The notes under the pieces are model-generated. The model did not search any database, was not told the DNA's origin, and was given only the letters and a program-made list of their open reading frames with translations. DNA of 64,000 bases. Origin: Candidatus Gastranaerophilaceae bacterium (GTDB lineage: Bacteria > Cyanobacteriota > Vampirovibrionia > Gastranaerophilales > Gastranaerophilaceae). The stretch is taken from positions 1,701 through 65,700 of the forward strand of contig JAZRSZ010000050.1 in NCBI GenBank assembly GCA_045651695.1, given 5' to 3'. A program made the position numbers and the translations under genes. Positions 1 through 46,231 of this stretch are shown here, in pieces (position 1 is the stretch's first letter; each line of letters begins with the position of its first letter).

Positions 1-547
1 TACTAAAGGCAAAGGTATCACGCCCAAAAGTATTTGGCTTTTTCTTAGCATTAATATCTACAACAACCTTAAAAGGGCCTCCATTATGTGGATAAGATGA
101 ACAAATAGTTGCACCTGAATTTATAGTCGCGCAATAATCATAGCAACGTAAGACATCCCTAAAACTTTCACCATATAACTCTCCATTAATCAATTTATAA
201 TGTTCTGCTACACAATCTGACCAATCTTCTTCATCATAACCACAATCTTTAGATATTTTAAAATATTTCTTGAAAAAATTTCCAAGATGTACTATACAAT
301 CTTCATATGCAGTATGCTCACTACAATACAAAGATGTTTCATTCAAATTGTCTACTTCTTCATCTACCATAAGAAGTGAAACTGCGTTTGAAATTTGGTT
401 ATACACTTTTTGGAGTTGTGCTACATATACTTTCTTTTGATAATTGGAAACTATATTAGGAACAGTCAAAACAGCAACCACTCCAATTATGCCTAGAGTA
501 ATTAAAACTTCAGCAAGTGTAAACGCTTTTCTCTTATGGTTTTGCAT
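1..547 (-). CDS. Type IV pilin-like / pseudopilin-like protein with a prepilin-type N-terminal cleavage/methylation motif. The gene runs off the window start, so the C-terminus is missing.
   Basis: My own translation of the minus strand from the ATG at 547-545 gives MQNHKRKAFTLAEVLITLGIIGVVAVLTVPNIVSNYQKK... and stays open to position 2. An SD sequence AAAGGAGAGAA lies just upstream. It ends ...VVVDINAKKKPNTFGRDTFAF, typical of this pilin-like family. It is absent from the ORF track because it is truncated by the window edge. Confidence 0.85.
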   Translation of the reverse strand, partial: MQNHKRKAFTLAEVLITLGIIGVVAVLTVPNIVSNYQKKVYVAQLQKVYNQISNAVSLLMVDEEVDNLNETSLYCSEHTAYEDCIVHLGNFFKKYFKISKDCGYDEEDWSDCVAEHYKLINGELYGESFRDVLRCYDYCATINSGATICSSYPHNGGPFKVVVDINAKKKPNTFGRDTFAFS

Positions 548-6940: not shown

Positions 6941-8542
6941 CTATTTCATTGTTTCAACTATTGCTTTTGCTACACAGTCCATATATTTATTTTGGTCGTA
7001 ATTAGATAACAAAGCATTTTGAATATTGTTATTAGCAATATTACCAATCTCTAACAAAACACCTGGTACCGCATCACCAATTGCATTAAGCACATACAGT
7101 TCTTGAGATTGTACTTTTGGTGCTAATAAAGTAAAGCCAGAGTTTACTTGCGATTGTATTTTGTCGGCTAATTGTTTATCTTTTGTGTCGCCACTTCTAT
7201 ATTTAACAGAACACCCTTTATTACTAGAGTTTTCCTTCATTGATTCAACATGAATAGACATAAAAAGCATATTGGATTTTGATGTATTTTTCATCAATGT
7301 TTTCGCTTCTTTTGAACCAACTTTACCAGCCAAAAGATTTTGAATATATTTTTGAGAATACATCCCGCCATTTTGAACTGCGCCTTGGATAATAACAACA
7401 TGAGCACCTTGAGCCCTCAGTTTCGCAGATAAAGCATCAGTATAATCTCTTGCAACACGCCATTCTTCAATTGGCATATATTTACCTTGAGCATTTTTTA
7501 CAGCATGAATTGTTCCTGCATCAAAAAAGCCATTCTCTTGTGCGTAGCCACCGTGACCGGAATTCAAAATAACAACTTTACCTTTAAGCGGTCCCTTGTT
7601 TGTAGTAGGGGCTTGGACATCACAAGTTGCCTCGATTTTGCCATTAACAACGTGAGGCATAGGTCTTACAAGATACGGGTTATTTAAACCATATTTCCTG
7701 TTAAATTCTTTTTGTCCTGATCTTATAGCATCATCTCTTAAATCACTTAACTTGAAAGTTTTACCATTATTTAATGTTACTTTTACATTACCTTTTGCTT
7801 CTTCGCCTTTTGGTTCTGGTACCGTATTTGGTTTTGGCGCCGGCTTTGGAGTTGGAGTTGGATCTGTTTTAGGAGTAGTTTCTTTATCTTCCCCAAACGG
7901 TCTTAGTGGAACCATTATCCAAGTCCCAGCTTTTAGTTTTGTAGGATCTGTAATTTGAGGGTTTAATGCCAACAAATCTTTATCCTCCATGTTATATTTT
8001 TTTGCCAATTGATCAAATTTTGTTTCCAATTTTTCCAATGGAACATTAACTGGTTCACCTGCTTTTACAGAATTCCAATTCTTGATTTGAGGATTCATTT
8101 TTTGGAATTCTTCAACAGTCATATTGAATTTTCTTGCCATATTCCAAGCGGATTTTTCAAACTCTGCTTGTGGCTTATCATTAAACGGTCTTAGTGGAAC
8201 CATTATCCATGTTCCAGCTTTTAATCTTGTTGGATCTGTAATTTGAGGATTTAAATCCAACAAATCTTTATAATCCATATTATATTTTAATGCCAATTGA
8301 TAAACGGTTGTTTCCAATTTTGCCAATGGGACATTAACTGGTTTACCTGCTTTAACAGAATTCCAATTTGTAATTCCAGGATTCATTTTTTTGAATTCTT
8401 CTTCAGACATATTGAATTTTTTTGCCATATGTGAAAGGTCTTTTTCAAACTCTGCTTGTGGCTTGTCATTCGTTGTTGATTGTTGAGTAGTACCTACTTG
8501 AGCCGTTTTTGAGGGCGCTCCTACACCTGATACTTGAACCAT
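6941..8542 (-). CDS. N-acetylmuramoyl-L-alanine amidase (Amidase_3) with four N-terminal LysM-like modules.
   Basis: The C-terminal domain reads VVILNSGHGGY...DAGT...FMSIHVES...LLEIGNI, typical of the AmiC/CwlD family. The N-terminus is a duplicated 96-aa unit, each with two LysM-like segments. A Pro/Thr linker TPKTDPTPTPKPAPKPNTVPEP follows. No signal peptide is visible. Confidence 0.85.
   Translation of the reverse strand: MVQVSGVGAPSKTAQVGTTQQSTTNDKPQAEFEKDLSHMAKKFNMSEEEFKKMNPGITNWNSVKAGKPVNVPLAKLETTVYQLALKYNMDYKDLLDLNPQITDPTRLKAGTWIMVPLRPFNDKPQAEFEKSAWNMARKFNMTVEEFQKMNPQIKNWNSVKAGEPVNVPLEKLETKFDQLAKKYNMEDKDLLALNPQITDPTKLKAGTWIMVPLRPFGEDKETTPKTDPTPTPKPAPKPNTVPEPKGEEAKGNVKVTLNNGKTFKLSDLRDDAIRSGQKEFNRKYGLNNPYLVRPMPHVVNGKIEATCDVQAPTTNKGPLKGKVVILNSGHGGYAQENGFFDAGTIHAVKNAQGKYMPIEEWRVARDYTDALSAKLRAQGAHVVIIQGAVQNGGMYSQKYIQNLLAGKVGSKEAKTLMKNTSKSNMLFMSIHVESMKENSSNKGCSVKYRSGDTKDKQLADKIQSQVNSGFTLLAPKVQSQELYVLNAIGDAVPGVLLEIGNIANNNIQNALLSNYDQNKYMDCVAKAIVETMK
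7892..8467 (-). repeat. Tandem duplication of 2 x 288 bp (96 codons) inside the amidase gene.
   Basis: Copy 1 is DKPQAEFEKDLSHMAKKFNMSEEEFKKMNPGITNWNSVKAGKPVNVPL...GTWIMVPLRPFN. Copy 2 is DKPQAEFEKSAWNMARKFNMTVEEFQKMNPQIKNWNSVKAGEPVNVPL...GTWIMVPLRPFG. The DNA anchor tcttagtgga recurs at 7901 and 8189, confirming the 288-nt period. Confidence 0.9.
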
Positions 8543-43507: not shown

Positions 43508-44680
43508 TTATTTTGCTTGAACTTTTTGAATTAAGTCATTAACTGCGTCACAAATTTCATTTTTATTTAACCACAATCTATTTCCTCTTACGGAATATCT
43601 TGCTTTTGCGACTTCTGTTGAAACATCAATACCTTGTGCATTTGCTCGTTCTTCAAGAGCATTTACCAATAATCTTGTAACTAATGCTTTTTCAACATCT
43701 TCACAATCATCCATTAATGTTTCTATAAAACCTTTTTTATCTTCTGCGTATTTACCAAAAGAACCGTATGTTTTATTCCATTCATTGATAACTTCAATTA
43801 CGTTATCACCATTAAGTTTTTTCATTGATTCTAAAAGGCCATTTTTACCATTAAAATTTGTACCTAGGCCGTCAACTGCACGAAAAATATTATTTACAAT
43901 TGTTTTTGGAGTATCTGCAACTTTGCTATCATTATTAGTAGCAGATGTTGTAGTACTTGCTGTTGTGTTTGTTGTACTTGTTGTTGTGTTTGCTGTACTT
44001 GCTGTTGTAGATTCTGATGTACCTGTTGTAGTTGTAGTACTTGCTGTTGCATCACCTGCACCGTCTGCATCACCTGCACCGTCTGCATTGTCTATTTGTT
44101 GTTGAATTTGTTTAGCCAATGTTTCTACTTGAGTTTTTAAACCATTGTATTCAGCGCTAATATTATCTAAAGCCGCTTTTACTTGTTCTAAAGTTGCACC
44201 TTGACGACGCAGATCAGATACATTATTCATTTTATTTTTCAATGCTTCTAATTGTTGCTTGATTTCTTTTAATTGCTGTTTTTGTTCTGCTTTTACTTTA
44301 TCAGAATTTAAAGCAGTATCAATATGATTGCCTAAACTTGTAATATTACCAGCAATAGCATTAAATCTATTATCTAAAAGAACATTATTGCCAATATTTT
44401 GTCCAAAAGCATACGCAGCCTGTTGAATTTCTGCATACTGTATATTTTGATACGGATTAATCATTTGTTCAAAGTTACTCAACATTTGAGAGATATGAAA
44501 AAATGGATTAGCCACATTTTGAATTGCAACTGCTTCCTGTGGAGTATATGTAAAAGGAAGTACATTAAATTGAACTCTTCTGCCATAATTTGTTGTGAAA
44601 TTATATGGAGCTGTTGCTTGCCATAAATACAAATTTGGCATTGAATCTGTTCTGAATGCGTTTAAATATCCCCAATCCAT
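43508..44680 (-). CDS. Hypothetical protein: N-terminal region, coiled coil, Thr/Ser-rich low-complexity linker, and a C-terminal annexin-like repeat.
   Basis: The coiled coil is KAEQKQQLKEIKQQLEALKNK...VETLAKQIQQQI. The linker is DGAGDADGAGDATASTTTTTGTSESTTASTANTTTSTTNTTASTTTSATNN. The C-terminal IFRAVDGLGTN...LLESMKKLNGDNVIEVINEWNKTYG...DVEKALVTRLL aligns to the annexin repeat consensus. No signal peptide is visible. Confidence 0.6.
   Translation of the reverse strand: MDWGYLNAFRTDSMPNLYLWQATAPYNFTTNYGRRVQFNVLPFTYTPQEAVAIQNVANPFFHISQMLSNFEQMINPYQNIQYAEIQQAAYAFGQNIGNNVLLDNRFNAIAGNITSLGNHIDTALNSDKVKAEQKQQLKEIKQQLEALKNKMNNVSDLRRQGATLEQVKAALDNISAEYNGLKTQVETLAKQIQQQIDNADGAGDADGAGDATASTTTTTGTSESTTASTANTTTSTTNTTASTTTSATNNDSKVADTPKTIVNNIFRAVDGLGTNFNGKNGLLESMKKLNGDNVIEVINEWNKTYGSFGKYAEDKKGFIETLMDDCEDVEKALVTRLLVNALEERANAQGIDVSTEVAKARYSVRGNRLWLNKNEICDAVNDLIQKVQAK
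44049..44084 (-). repeat. Perfect 2 x 18-nt tandem repeat (encoding DGAGDA twice) at the start of the Thr/Ser-rich linker.
   Basis: gcatcacctgcaccgtct occurs at 44049-44066 and again at 44067-44084. Confidence 0.9.
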
Positions 44681-44911: not shown

Positions 44912-44974
44912 GAAGTAAGTGGAGTAAGTGAGGTGAGTGGAGTGAGTAAAGTAAGTAAAGTGAGTAAAGTGCGT
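44912..44974 (+). repeat. Seven tandem 9-nt units, consensus RRAGTRAGT, within a 63-nt stretch free of C on the plus strand.
   Basis: The units are GAAGTAAGT GGAGTAAGT GAGGTGAGT GGAGTGAGT AAAGTAAGT AAAGTGAGT AAAGTGCGT. No C occurs from 44909 to 44971. Confidence 0.9.
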
Positions 44975-44980
44975 ATATAA

Positions 44981-45033: not shown

Positions 45034-46158
45034 TTACTTCACACAAATCGCCTGTATCATACCATCGTCGCAATCACGACGAGAGGTAGCCCATTCTGAA
45101 AATAATGGATGATCGATAGACCTATAATACGAATTACTTGCCACCATTTCAACACCAGACCAAATACCTAACATAGATAAATCAATACCTAAAGAAAGTG
45201 CATTGTCATCATTTCTGGAACCATCTTGACCACTATATATGTGGTCCATTATCGCTGCCAATTGAGTCTCATTTGGTAGTTTTGATACTCCACCACATTG
45301 TTTTACCGCACCCGCCCAATAATCATCATCATATTGACACTCTGATATACCTAATTCACCTTTTAATGCTTCACATTCTGCTTTTGTGATTGAAGTAGGA
45401 GTAAATGCTTGAGTAGTAACACAAACGCCACCAACTTCAGCAATACAATCTGCAGGGCCAATACGTTTTACTGAACCAAATTGATTAAAGTCTTTACCCA
45501 TCTCGTTTGGATCTGAAAAACCTGATGTGTCATAAACAAGCGCAAAACAATCTGAACCTGTAATTTTGTTGTCATAAGGATCTGCAGTACATTTTGGGTT
45601 GTATGCAATCAATCCTGTAACACCGTTTGCGAATTGGATACCCATTACATTTGTACCCCAATCATCTTGACCAAAACCGCTTGCGTCTACAATTGCTGAC
45701 ATATCTACTTCTTTATCGTTTACTGTTGTTGTTTTTTCAAAACATTGCATTGTGTGGTCTTTGTCGCATACTTTGGTTATTTTGTAGTGTTTTTGTAATT
45801 CTTCTACAAAACCTTCTGTATCATTATACTTACCATATTTACCAAGTTGGCCTTGTACGTTCATTGTTTTTAATGCTTCAGTAAATTTTGCTTCAAACAC
45901 TTGGGATGCAGTTGCCCAAGATTTTGTTTGGTAATTTTGTACCAATGTCGGTATTGTCAACGCAGCGACTACACCGATTATGCCTAGGGTGATTAAAACC
46001 TCTGCAAGAGTGAATGCAAATCTACGTTTATTGTTAGAGTTGTCTACGTGCGTAGCACCTTCGGCCAAGGTAAACCCGAATTTACGTTTTTTGTTAAACG
46101 TATCTACGTGCGTAGCACCTTCGGCCAAGGTAAACCCTTTTCTTTTGTTCTTTTCCAT
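45034..46158 (-). CDS. Type IV pilin-like protein with a triplicated prepilin leader/cleavage motif and a Cys-rich C-terminal globular region.
   Basis: It begins MEKNKRKGFTLAEGATHVDTFNKKRKFGFTLAEGATHVDNSNNKRRFAFTLAEVLITLGIIGVVAALTIPTLVQNYQ. The SD AAGGAGAGAA precedes the start. The segment ...ALVYDTSGFSDPNEMGKDFNQF matches the family seen at 1-547. Confidence 0.85.
   Translation of the reverse strand: MEKNKRKGFTLAEGATHVDTFNKKRKFGFTLAEGATHVDNSNNKRRFAFTLAEVLITLGIIGVVAALTIPTLVQNYQTKSWATASQVFEAKFTEALKTMNVQGQLGKYGKYNDTEGFVEELQKHYKITKVCDKDHTMQCFEKTTTVNDKEVDMSAIVDASGFGQDDWGTNVMGIQFANGVTGLIAYNPKCTADPYDNKITGSDCFALVYDTSGFSDPNEMGKDFNQFGSVKRIGPADCIAEVGGVCVTTQAFTPTSITKAECEALKGELGISECQYDDDYWAGAVKQCGGVSKLPNETQLAAIMDHIYSGQDGSRNDDNALSLGIDLSMLGIWSGVEMVASNSYYRSIDHPLFSEWATSRRDCDDGMIQAICVK
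46043..46137 (-). repeat. Two perfect 35-nt direct repeats with a 60-nt period (46043-46077 and 46103-46137) encoding GFTLAEGATHVD. A third, diverged copy at about 45983-46017 encodes the real FTLAEVLITLG.
   Basis: tctacgtgcgtagcaccttcggccaaggtaaaccc occurs twice. It is 20/35 G+C in an AT-rich genome. The sense RNA can form ACCUU-GGCCG-AAGGU and CUAC-GCAC-GUAG hairpins. Confidence 0.95.
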
Positions 46159-46231
46159 TTTCTCTCCTTTTTTATGTTTTATTATTATTTCCTAAAAATT
46201 TGCAATTTTACGAGGTTTGACAAGTTGTTTA

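Follow-up and report, generated by a model that had tools for sequence, protein, structure and literature searches.

Probable tandem leader modules reiterate the prepilin cleavage motif in pilin-like genes of gut Gastranaerophilales

Why a pilin precursor should present the prepilin cleavage motif three times in succession is the question raised by a pilin-like gene in the 64,000-nucleotide (nt) stretch of contig JAZRSZ010000050.1 analyzed here (positions 1,701 to 65,700, Candidatus Gastranaerophilaceae assembly GCA_045651695.1; hereafter the window). The first-pass annotation of this DNA, made from the letters and their open reading frames (ORFs) alone, described the three motifs and put forward peptidase cutting at every site, titration or timing of processing, or a constraint on the nucleotides as possible explanations. 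On balance, the extra prepilin sites are probably tandem copies of a 60-nt leader module, and the long translated leader is probably removed by a cut at the final site. This module characterizes a large pilin-like gene family of the gut Gastranaerophilales (Melainabacteria).

Results

Anatomy of the Window Gene

The predicted protein begins MEKNKRKGFTLAEGATHVDTFNKKRKFGFTLAEGATHVDNSNNKRRFAFTLAEVLITLGIIGVVAALTIP and can be laid out as MEKNKRKG-FTLAE-GATHVDTFNKKRKFG-FTLAE-GATHVDNSNNKRRFA-FTLAE-VLITLGIIGVVAALTIP, with cleavage motifs at G8↓F9, G28↓F29 and A48↓F49 (the arrow marks the cleavage position), the last continuing with Thr, Leu, Ala and E53. Gly or Ala at −1, Phe at +1 and Glu at +5, which define a class III signal peptide, are all present. 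Each 60-nt unit is composed of the codons of an extra FTLAE, a 16-nt sequence (the 16-mer) translated as GATHV, and a linker of 29 nt. The three consecutive motifs, the 20-codon period and the perfect repeats described in the first-pass annotation were confirmed: the 35-nt stretches at 46043-46077 and 46103-46137 are identical at 35/35 positions, with a G+C content of 57% compared with 31.7% for the window, and the two complete 60-nt units are identical at 53/60 bases. Tandem Repeats Finder reported a period of 60, 2.0 copies and 89% matches at the units, and a search of the window for the 35-mer with three or fewer mismatches returned just two copies, with none in 100 shuffles.

The earlier statement that a helix follows only the third motif was borne out by several approaches. 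Pfam N_methyl matched the third motif only (residues 44-67, E = 1.3e-6, above the cut-off), and NCBIfam IV_pilin_GFxxxE also matched the protein. A hydrophobic helix of ∼20 residues follows motif 3 and is absent behind motifs 1 and 2. The AlphaFold model places a helix at residues 51-101, behind the third motif only, and shows residues 1-44 as disordered, with a predicted local distance difference test (pLDDT) score of ∼40. The globular C-terminal part (window 45034-45998, 320 residues) was modeled with high confidence and contains ten invariant Cys residues; a fold search of the model against the PDB gave no significant match, the top hit being the C-terminal domain of Legionella Lcl (E = 0.036).

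A good Shine-Dalgarno sequence precedes the first ATG, as had been claimed (Table 1), but the accompanying claim that no in-frame ATG, GTG or TTG precedes the third motif requires correction, since TTG is found at codons 11 and 31. Each is the Leu codon of an extra FTLAE, such that the rest of the unit would still be read from these starts. The other pilin-like gene of the window (1-547) has the single leader ascribed to it, MQNHKRKA↓FTLAEVLITLG.

Translation of the Units

The extra units are translated, in keeping with the earlier proposal. In the units drawn from the matches listed in the DNA scan described below, frame-0 stops were present in 0/98 linkers, as against 57/98 in frame 2. Together with the finding that the longer inserts that follow some units are in frame, this is indicative of selection that keeps the units readable throughout. 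Ahead of the first unit, frame 0 is open over a median of 41 codons, compared with 4-5 in the other frames, and is the longest open frame in 83/93 loci (Wilcoxon p about 1e-16). In the window, L245 and L247, the units are immediately preceded by a strong Shine-Dalgarno sequence and ATG, and an arrangement of the two like that of the window was seen in the relatives L245, L246 and L247.

A tract of 8-14 G residues (mostly G10) was found in the leader region of 56 related genes, including L194, L218, L227, L228, L035 and L248-L250. In 55/56 of these genes, no stop interrupts the pilin frame between the tract and the cleavage site. An upstream ORF with its own Shine-Dalgarno sequence and ATG runs into the tract and is in frame with the pilin in only 5/55, which implies that most tract-bearing genes were assembled in an “off” phase, with the proviso that short-read assemblies may misreport tract lengths. 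In-frame versions exist as called proteins (e.g. P0037, P0038 and P0041), and one additional G in L227 would fuse the upstream and pilin ORFs. Because a poly-G switch depends on translation running from the leader into the pilin, the tracts lend further support to translation of the units. The window gene has no homopolymer tract between its start codon and main frame.

Two Types of Constraint within One Unit

Constraint was assessed in 101 distinct units collected with a degenerate pattern in which the third positions of GATHV were left free. The third positions of the extra FTLAE had an entropy of 0.8-2.0 bits, similar to that of the true FTLAE, whereas those of GATHV had an entropy of 0-0.27 bits, the sequence GGT GCT ACG CAC GTA G being essentially invariant. 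The comparison of synonymous and nonsynonymous change that the first-pass annotation had recommended thus separates the two constraints, with third positions free in FTLAE and fixed in GATHV. A second set was anchored on the 16-mer alone and is, accordingly, unbiased for the preceding sequence. Upstream of pilin starts, FTL(A/S)E precedes 27/30 units of this set, with Ala in 20 and Gly in 7 at residue −1 and with variation concentrated at third positions. The (A/G)-FTLAE of the extra units is kept by coding-type selection.

FTLAE stands on both sides of the unit, with a likeness between the two copies that hardly exceeds chance. The extra FTLAE matches the true FTLAE of its own gene at 11.88/15 nt, compared with 11.49 ± 0.10 for the true FTLAE of other genes, the former value being reached in 0/2000 shuffles. 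Codon usage differs between extra and true FTLAE (Leu, p = 1e-5; Ala, 6e-6; Glu, 7e-6), indicating that the extra copy is not simply overwritten by the true one. Taken with the small excess of likeness within genes, this difference implies that frequent copying of the true site does not account for the peptide-type conservation.

The 16-mer as a Nucleic Acid Signal

The 16-mer GGTGCTACGCACGTAG was also found in another frame within a leader ORF (RCYARS, L184), in reverse orientation beside a poly-G tract (YVRST; L194, L218, L227 and L228, with a two-mismatch variant in L035), at the head of intergenic repeats of 59-63 nt, including some in named Gastranaerophilales genomes, and in 59-60-nt tandem arrays. 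In L215 it is contained in 80-nt inverted arms with ∼330 bp between them. Non-coding copies retain the 16-mer, the FTLAE-equivalent part having decayed and stops being present, and about half of the copies with no FTLAE in front lie within 100-700 nt of a pilin-like start. Occurrence in other frames, in reverse and between genes points to a DNA or RNA signal rather than a peptide, and we infer that the 16-mer acts in cis. The size of the collection scanned gives some chance matches, those in high-GC contexts probably being of this kind. The 16-mer repeats display dispersed copies, a conserved terminus and an inverted-repeat arrangement, as expected of a mobile element; the flanks and preceding sequences of copies outside pilin genes share no target motif.

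It is the sequence of the 16-mer that is conserved, not a fold. Of the nucleotide-level constraint first proposed, the part that concerns sequence stands, by virtue of the invariant third positions, and the part that concerns RNA hairpins does not, no covariation having been found. Two small hairpins had been described for each copy; the stem of the first (ACCTT/AAGGT) depends on the codon choice of the window gene and has no covariation support (Fisher p = 0.49). The minimum free energy of the unit was −21.2 kcal/mol, compared with −19.1 kcal/mol for shuffled sequences, and the units yielded neither a curated RNA family nor a structure with covariation.

Two forms of rearrangement at the 16-mer were considered and rejected. 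An inverton with the 16-mer as crossover does not fit, since the inverted segment of L184/L227 contains the 16-mer and does not end there. A shufflon- or integron-like cassette exchange is not supported either: F-x-x-x-E precedes 189/189 hydrophobic N-terminal segments, which leaves no pilin body orphaned, and the sole allelic replacement seen breaks in the helix-coding region instead. Between L120 and L197, the upstream region, unit and N-terminal helix coding are shared, 686 nt of pilin body are replaced, and homology resumes downstream, which looks like an allelic or paralogous exchange of a variable domain.

Further arrangements were noted around the 16-mer. Between L184 and L218, L227 and L228, a segment of ∼95 nt upstream of the pilin start (poly-C, GCAAGC, 16-mer and flanks) is inverted; the ORF is open through both orientations, and an imperfect inverted repeat (..AGCTCC..) lies at the ends; this may be an invertible segment. 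In L215 (7215-7715), each 80-nt arm begins with the 16-mer, and the interior is packed with further GC-rich repeats; L121, 99% identical to L215 upstream, diverges inside the inverted-arm element and continues into a pilin-like gene. The 16-mer abuts the T-run of intrinsic terminators in L169, L237, L224, L137 and L179, which are low-GC metagenome contigs with no pilin start nearby. Read in the +1 frame, FTLAE, a G and GTG CTA CGC ACG TAG give FTLAE-VLRT-stop, resembling the true FTLAE-VLIT, a likeness that may reflect descent from a pilin N-terminus or be due to chance.

Distribution and Unstable Copy Number

Homologues of the window protein number >7000 in a protein search and are pilin-like proteins of ∼340-440 residues that share its N-terminus. 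Of the 120 best, many lack an extra unit, ∼20 have a single FTLAEGATHV unit, and four are present in P0019. When one genome per species was scanned at the DNA level with a pattern degenerate at every synonymous site, at least 118 stretches encoding FTLAEGATHV were returned, nearly all titled Gastranaerophilales, Melainabacteria, Cyanobacteria or unclassified “uncultured bacterium” metagenome-assembled genomes. Among the matches listed, a few are titled as other taxa (e.g. Muribaculaceae), single genomes often contribute several stretches, upstream of pilin-like genes with differing bodies, and the true FTLAEV.. begins exactly 20 codons after the unit in 107/116 units, the others having longer in-frame inserts. 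The 60-nt unit is found 5′ of >100 distinct pilin-like genes of the Gastranaerophilales, copy number ranging from 0 to 4. Nucleotide identity between the window and the housekeeping genes of unit-bearing genomes is 70-76%, and the window very likely belongs to the Gastranaerophilales. A phage origin of the unit seems unlikely, with only six matches in viral contigs. Exact-protein look-up of P0001, P0003, P0004 and P0007 returned no record, and no description of a pilin leader with a repeated motif turned up in the searchable literature, in line with what the first-pass annotation had supposed.

Extra units of a second type, G↓FTLAE-(A/G)(V/A)EPRHxxGFWSKG↓FTLAEV, were observed in P0040, P0043, P0058 and P0085 and in L248, L249 and L250. 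They have a period of 16-19 residues and another GC-rich insert, the synonymous sites of EPRH vary, and genes of this type also sit behind homopolymer tracts.

The linker is alike among paralogues sampled from one genome, differs between genomes, and ends Arg/Lys, Arg/Lys, x, Ala/Gly. An ATG is present at unit codon 12, nine codons before the true site, in 22/129 units, and these account for 22/23 of all linker ATGs. The linker thereby resembles a complete short prepilin leader fused behind an upstream piece made of start, leader and FTLAE; in L105 the two pieces are still kept apart by a TAA stop with an ATG directly behind it. Codon 12 is ACG and AAC in the window units, and a start at this position is not associated with a missing upstream start (p = 0.49).

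Head-to-tail units that differ in number between orthologues identify a variable-copy tandem repeat, the copy number of which changes in register. L016 has two units and L109 one at an orthologous locus with flanks 95-97% identical, and the L109 unit has the look of a hybrid between the L016 pair. The window gene has its best candidate orthologue in L247 (P0002; 84% nucleotide identity, downstream genes shared); this gene has one unit with the linker DNSNNKRKFA, which is the proximal type of the window, and a different distal leader. The distal type (linker 1 of the window) occurs as a single unit in P0003, P0007 and P0018. These findings identify the two-unit array of the window as a lineage-specific gain, most simply explained by unequal recombination at FTLAE/16-mer homology, as judged from the sequences. 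The possibility that the repeat is a duplication peculiar to this strain, raised in the first-pass annotation, thus holds for the second copy (one unit in L247, none or one in close relatives) and not for the unit itself, which is order-wide.

Surroundings of the Window Gene

The neighbors of the window gene are housekeeping genes, among others those for lipoate-protein ligase, a GGDEF-HD protein and IspD, and in close relatives with fetched contigs the genes are also at scattered loci. Coordinates are collected in Table 1. A 9-nt tandem repeat (GAAGTAAGT and variants, ∼6 copies) occupies window 44912-44975, in the spacer that separates the pilin-like gene from the gene after it, and adjoins the terminator-like hairpin. 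The minus-strand gene at 43508-44680 encodes a protein of 390 residues that includes a coiled-coil part and a low-complexity stretch rich in Thr and Ser, the latter encoded by 21-nt and 18-nt tandem repeats (43948-44088); this protein is kept beside the L247 orthologue. Elsewhere, a 288-nt unit occurs twice (86% matches) at 7895-8470, inside a LysM/amidase gene (6941-8542).

Table 1. Features of the pilin-like gene and its 3′ flank, in window coordinates
Feature	Position	Strand	Basis or remark
Pilin-like gene, 374 aa	45034..46158	minus	ORF list; 48-residue leader, prepilin N-terminus, globular Cys-rich C-terminal part
Shine-Dalgarno AAGGAGAG, strong	46162..46169	minus	3 nt 5′ of ATG 46156-46158; read from sequence
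Start codon and first basic leader MEKNKRKG	46135..46158	minus	Translation
Extra FTLAE number 1, TTT ACC TTG GCC GAA	46120..46134	minus	Codon-type conservation in related loci
16-mer GGTGCTACGCACGTAG copy 1, translated GATHV	46104..46119	minus	Invariant in related units
Linker 1, ..DTFNKKRKFG	46075..46103	minus	Ends as basic leader, Gly at −1
Extra FTLAE number 2, same codons as number 1	46060..46074	minus	Sequence
Invariant 16-mer copy 2	46044..46059	minus	Sequence
Linker 2, ..DNSNNKRRFA	46015..46043	minus	Ala at −1 of true site
True mature N-terminus FTLAE, TTC ACT CTT GCA GAG	46000..46014	minus	5/5 codons unlike extra copies
Hydrophobic N-terminal segment VLITLGIIGVVAALTIP, long-helix start	45949..45999	minus	Pfam N_methyl, AlphaFold helix, invariant alignment columns
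Terminator-like hairpin directly after stop codon	44981..45009	.	Beside the 9-nt tandem repeat at 44912-44975

Discussion

In the reading favored here, the module would be transcribed and translated within an unusually long, modular N-terminal leader, and prepilin peptidase would cut at the last (G/A)↓FTLAE, since this is the only site with a membrane helix behind it. The whole leader would then be discarded, such that the mature pilin would be normal and start at F49. The module itself comprises a pseudo-N-terminus (basic residues, G/A and FTLAE) kept by coding-type selection, the invariant 16-nt GGTGCTACGCACGTAG kept as nucleic acid and presumably read by some factor, and a linker that resembles a complete short prepilin leader and often still starts with ATG. 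Copy number would shift in register through unequal recombination or slippage between modules.

Several points weigh against this account. The position of the peptidase cut is deduced rather than observed, and neither pilus machinery nor a prepilin peptidase (Peptidase_A24) was found among the 30 window ORFs scanned. The module is present in only 2/19 bystander pilin-like genes, so that the pilin-like family as a whole does not need it. Rfam scans (gathering and E-value) covering the window and 20 loci had no match at the units, and the only structure that RNAalifold recovered from the units was a stem of five pairs (−4.3 kcal/mol) within the invariant 16-mer, unsupported by any compensatory change. 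Lastly, the coding-type conservation of the extra (A/G)-FTLAE would be unexplained if these were mere passengers, which suggests that the peptide motif is perhaps itself seen. One published Gastranaerophilus genome is reported to encode pilA, pilB, pilC, pilT and pilD (PMC5877343).

Codon-type conservation also keeps alive the earlier ideas of peptidase cutting and titration. Tentatively, and with distinctly lower confidence than the leader-module reading, the extra (G/A)↓FTLAE could be true sites for the peptidase or a pilin-handling protein, selected as peptide, and the 16-mer a family-wide cis signal, the two jointly governing a large, phase-variable pilin-like surface repertoire. A somewhat less probable proposal is that the extra sites are working peptidase sites, bound or cut, that recruit, time or titrate processing or release 20-residue fragments. 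The codon-type conservation, the Ala or Gly at −1 in 27/27, the preceding basic residues, and a codon usage unlike that of the true site, which implies that the motif is not kept by copying, are all consistent with such a role, as is the retention of G↓FTLAE in the EPRHxxGFWSKG unit type. It is difficult to reconcile, however, with the absence of a hydrophobic segment behind the extra sites, the disorder of residues 1-44 in the model, the 0 to 4 copies among close relatives and orthologues, and the lack of a unit in most pilin-like genes. Furthermore, prepilin peptidase acts on the cytoplasmic face of the membrane, so that leader fragments would be released in the cytoplasm and secreted peptides are unlikely. 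That the unit is a selfish GC-rich mini-element, spreading among pilin paralogues via homology at the FTLAE-coding site, is unlikelier again. Being in frame and stop-free, rebuilding the cleavage site and being removed with the leader, such an element would be harmless, and deletion of one unit restores a canonical prepilin. The 16-mer at the head of dispersed intergenic repeats, tandem arrays and inverted arms would fit, as would linkers that are alike within a genome and differ between genomes, the slight excess of likeness between an extra FTLAE and the true FTLAE of its own gene, and a window array that joins two linker types found singly in relatives. Against this, that excess is small, codon usage differs between the two FTLAE, sequences before the 16-mer outside pilin genes have no common target motif, and no transposase, recombinase or target duplication was identified, no genome-wide enzyme search having been made.

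The remaining alternatives concern how the unit is read. It is doubtful that the 16-mer is part of an internal translation start, with an SD-like (Shine-Dalgarno-like) GGUG, a small hairpin and a start at unit codon 12, the extra FTLAE then belonging to a fused upstream ORF. The concentration of linker ATGs at codon 12, the TAA directly before this place in L105, and the calling of P0117 from the codon-12 Met would be explained, but 78% of units have no canonical start there, including those of the window, no association with a missing upstream start was detected, and the reverse-orientation 16-mers do not fit. Removal of the units by mRNA splicing, or by ribosomal bypass between matching FTLAE codons, to give a canonical MKKG↓FTLAEV prepilin has next to no probability. 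Exact loss of one 60-nt unit would indeed recreate such a prepilin, and GC-rich hairpin inserts are bypassed in some yeast mitochondria. Nevertheless, the depletion of stops in frame 0 relative to frame 2 and the open upstream frame make either process very unlikely, longer inserts are in frame, no stop follows the would-be take-off codon (GGT follows GAA), and the extra and true sites often have different Glu codons. Programmed bypass was rejected accordingly, there being neither a stop or unreadable codon after take-off nor a gap of unselected content.

With the precursors of type IV pilins and type II secretion pseudopilins, the window protein shares the basic leader, the G/A at −1, Phe at +1 and Glu at +5, the hydrophobic helix of ∼20 residues and a globular, Cys-containing C-terminal part. 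It differs from them in a leader of 48 residues (often 50-150 in relatives), in the construction of that leader from repeat modules with a complete cleavage motif 1-4 times without a helix, and in a C-terminal domain that matches no solved structure. Rickettsia palindromic elements are repeats inserted in frame in protein-coding genes; like them, the present unit inhabits an AT-rich genome, occurs both between genes and in frame within ORFs, and is translated and tolerated. The unit is much shorter (45-63 nt), however, is concentrated in the cleavable leader of one gene family, and comes with a duplicated peptide motif on which coding-type selection acts. In Neisseria and Haemophilus, for example, some surface protein genes vary in phase through homopolymer tracts located in the 5′ coding region, and many relatives have a comparable G8-14 tract between the upstream Shine-Dalgarno-ATG and the pilin frame. 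The window gene has no such tract, and its 60-nt repeat, being always in frame, cannot toggle the gene on or off. Translational bypass elements, such as that of phage T4 gene 60 and the “byp” GC clusters of yeast mitochondria, resemble the unit as short GC-rich coding inserts with matching flanking codons in an AT-rich genome, but the inserts described here are stop-depleted and in frame, i.e. read and not skipped.

Prepilin leaders are usually short and simple, yet an uncultured lineage known from gut metagenomes builds long ones from modules that recreate the cleavage motif. A single 60-nt stretch provides clean evidence of two constraints, one on the peptide over 15 nt and one on the nucleic acid over the next 16 nt. 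The system offers a direct test of the site requirements of prepilin peptidase and points to a factor that reads a 16-nt signal common to many surface-protein genes. For annotation, the long N-terminal “extensions” seen in these genes are to be taken as genuine coding sequence, and many of the genes carry homopolymer switches. If the extra motifs are recognition sites and the 16-mer is a cis signal, a new layer of control would be built into the cleavable leader of these gut Melainabacteria.

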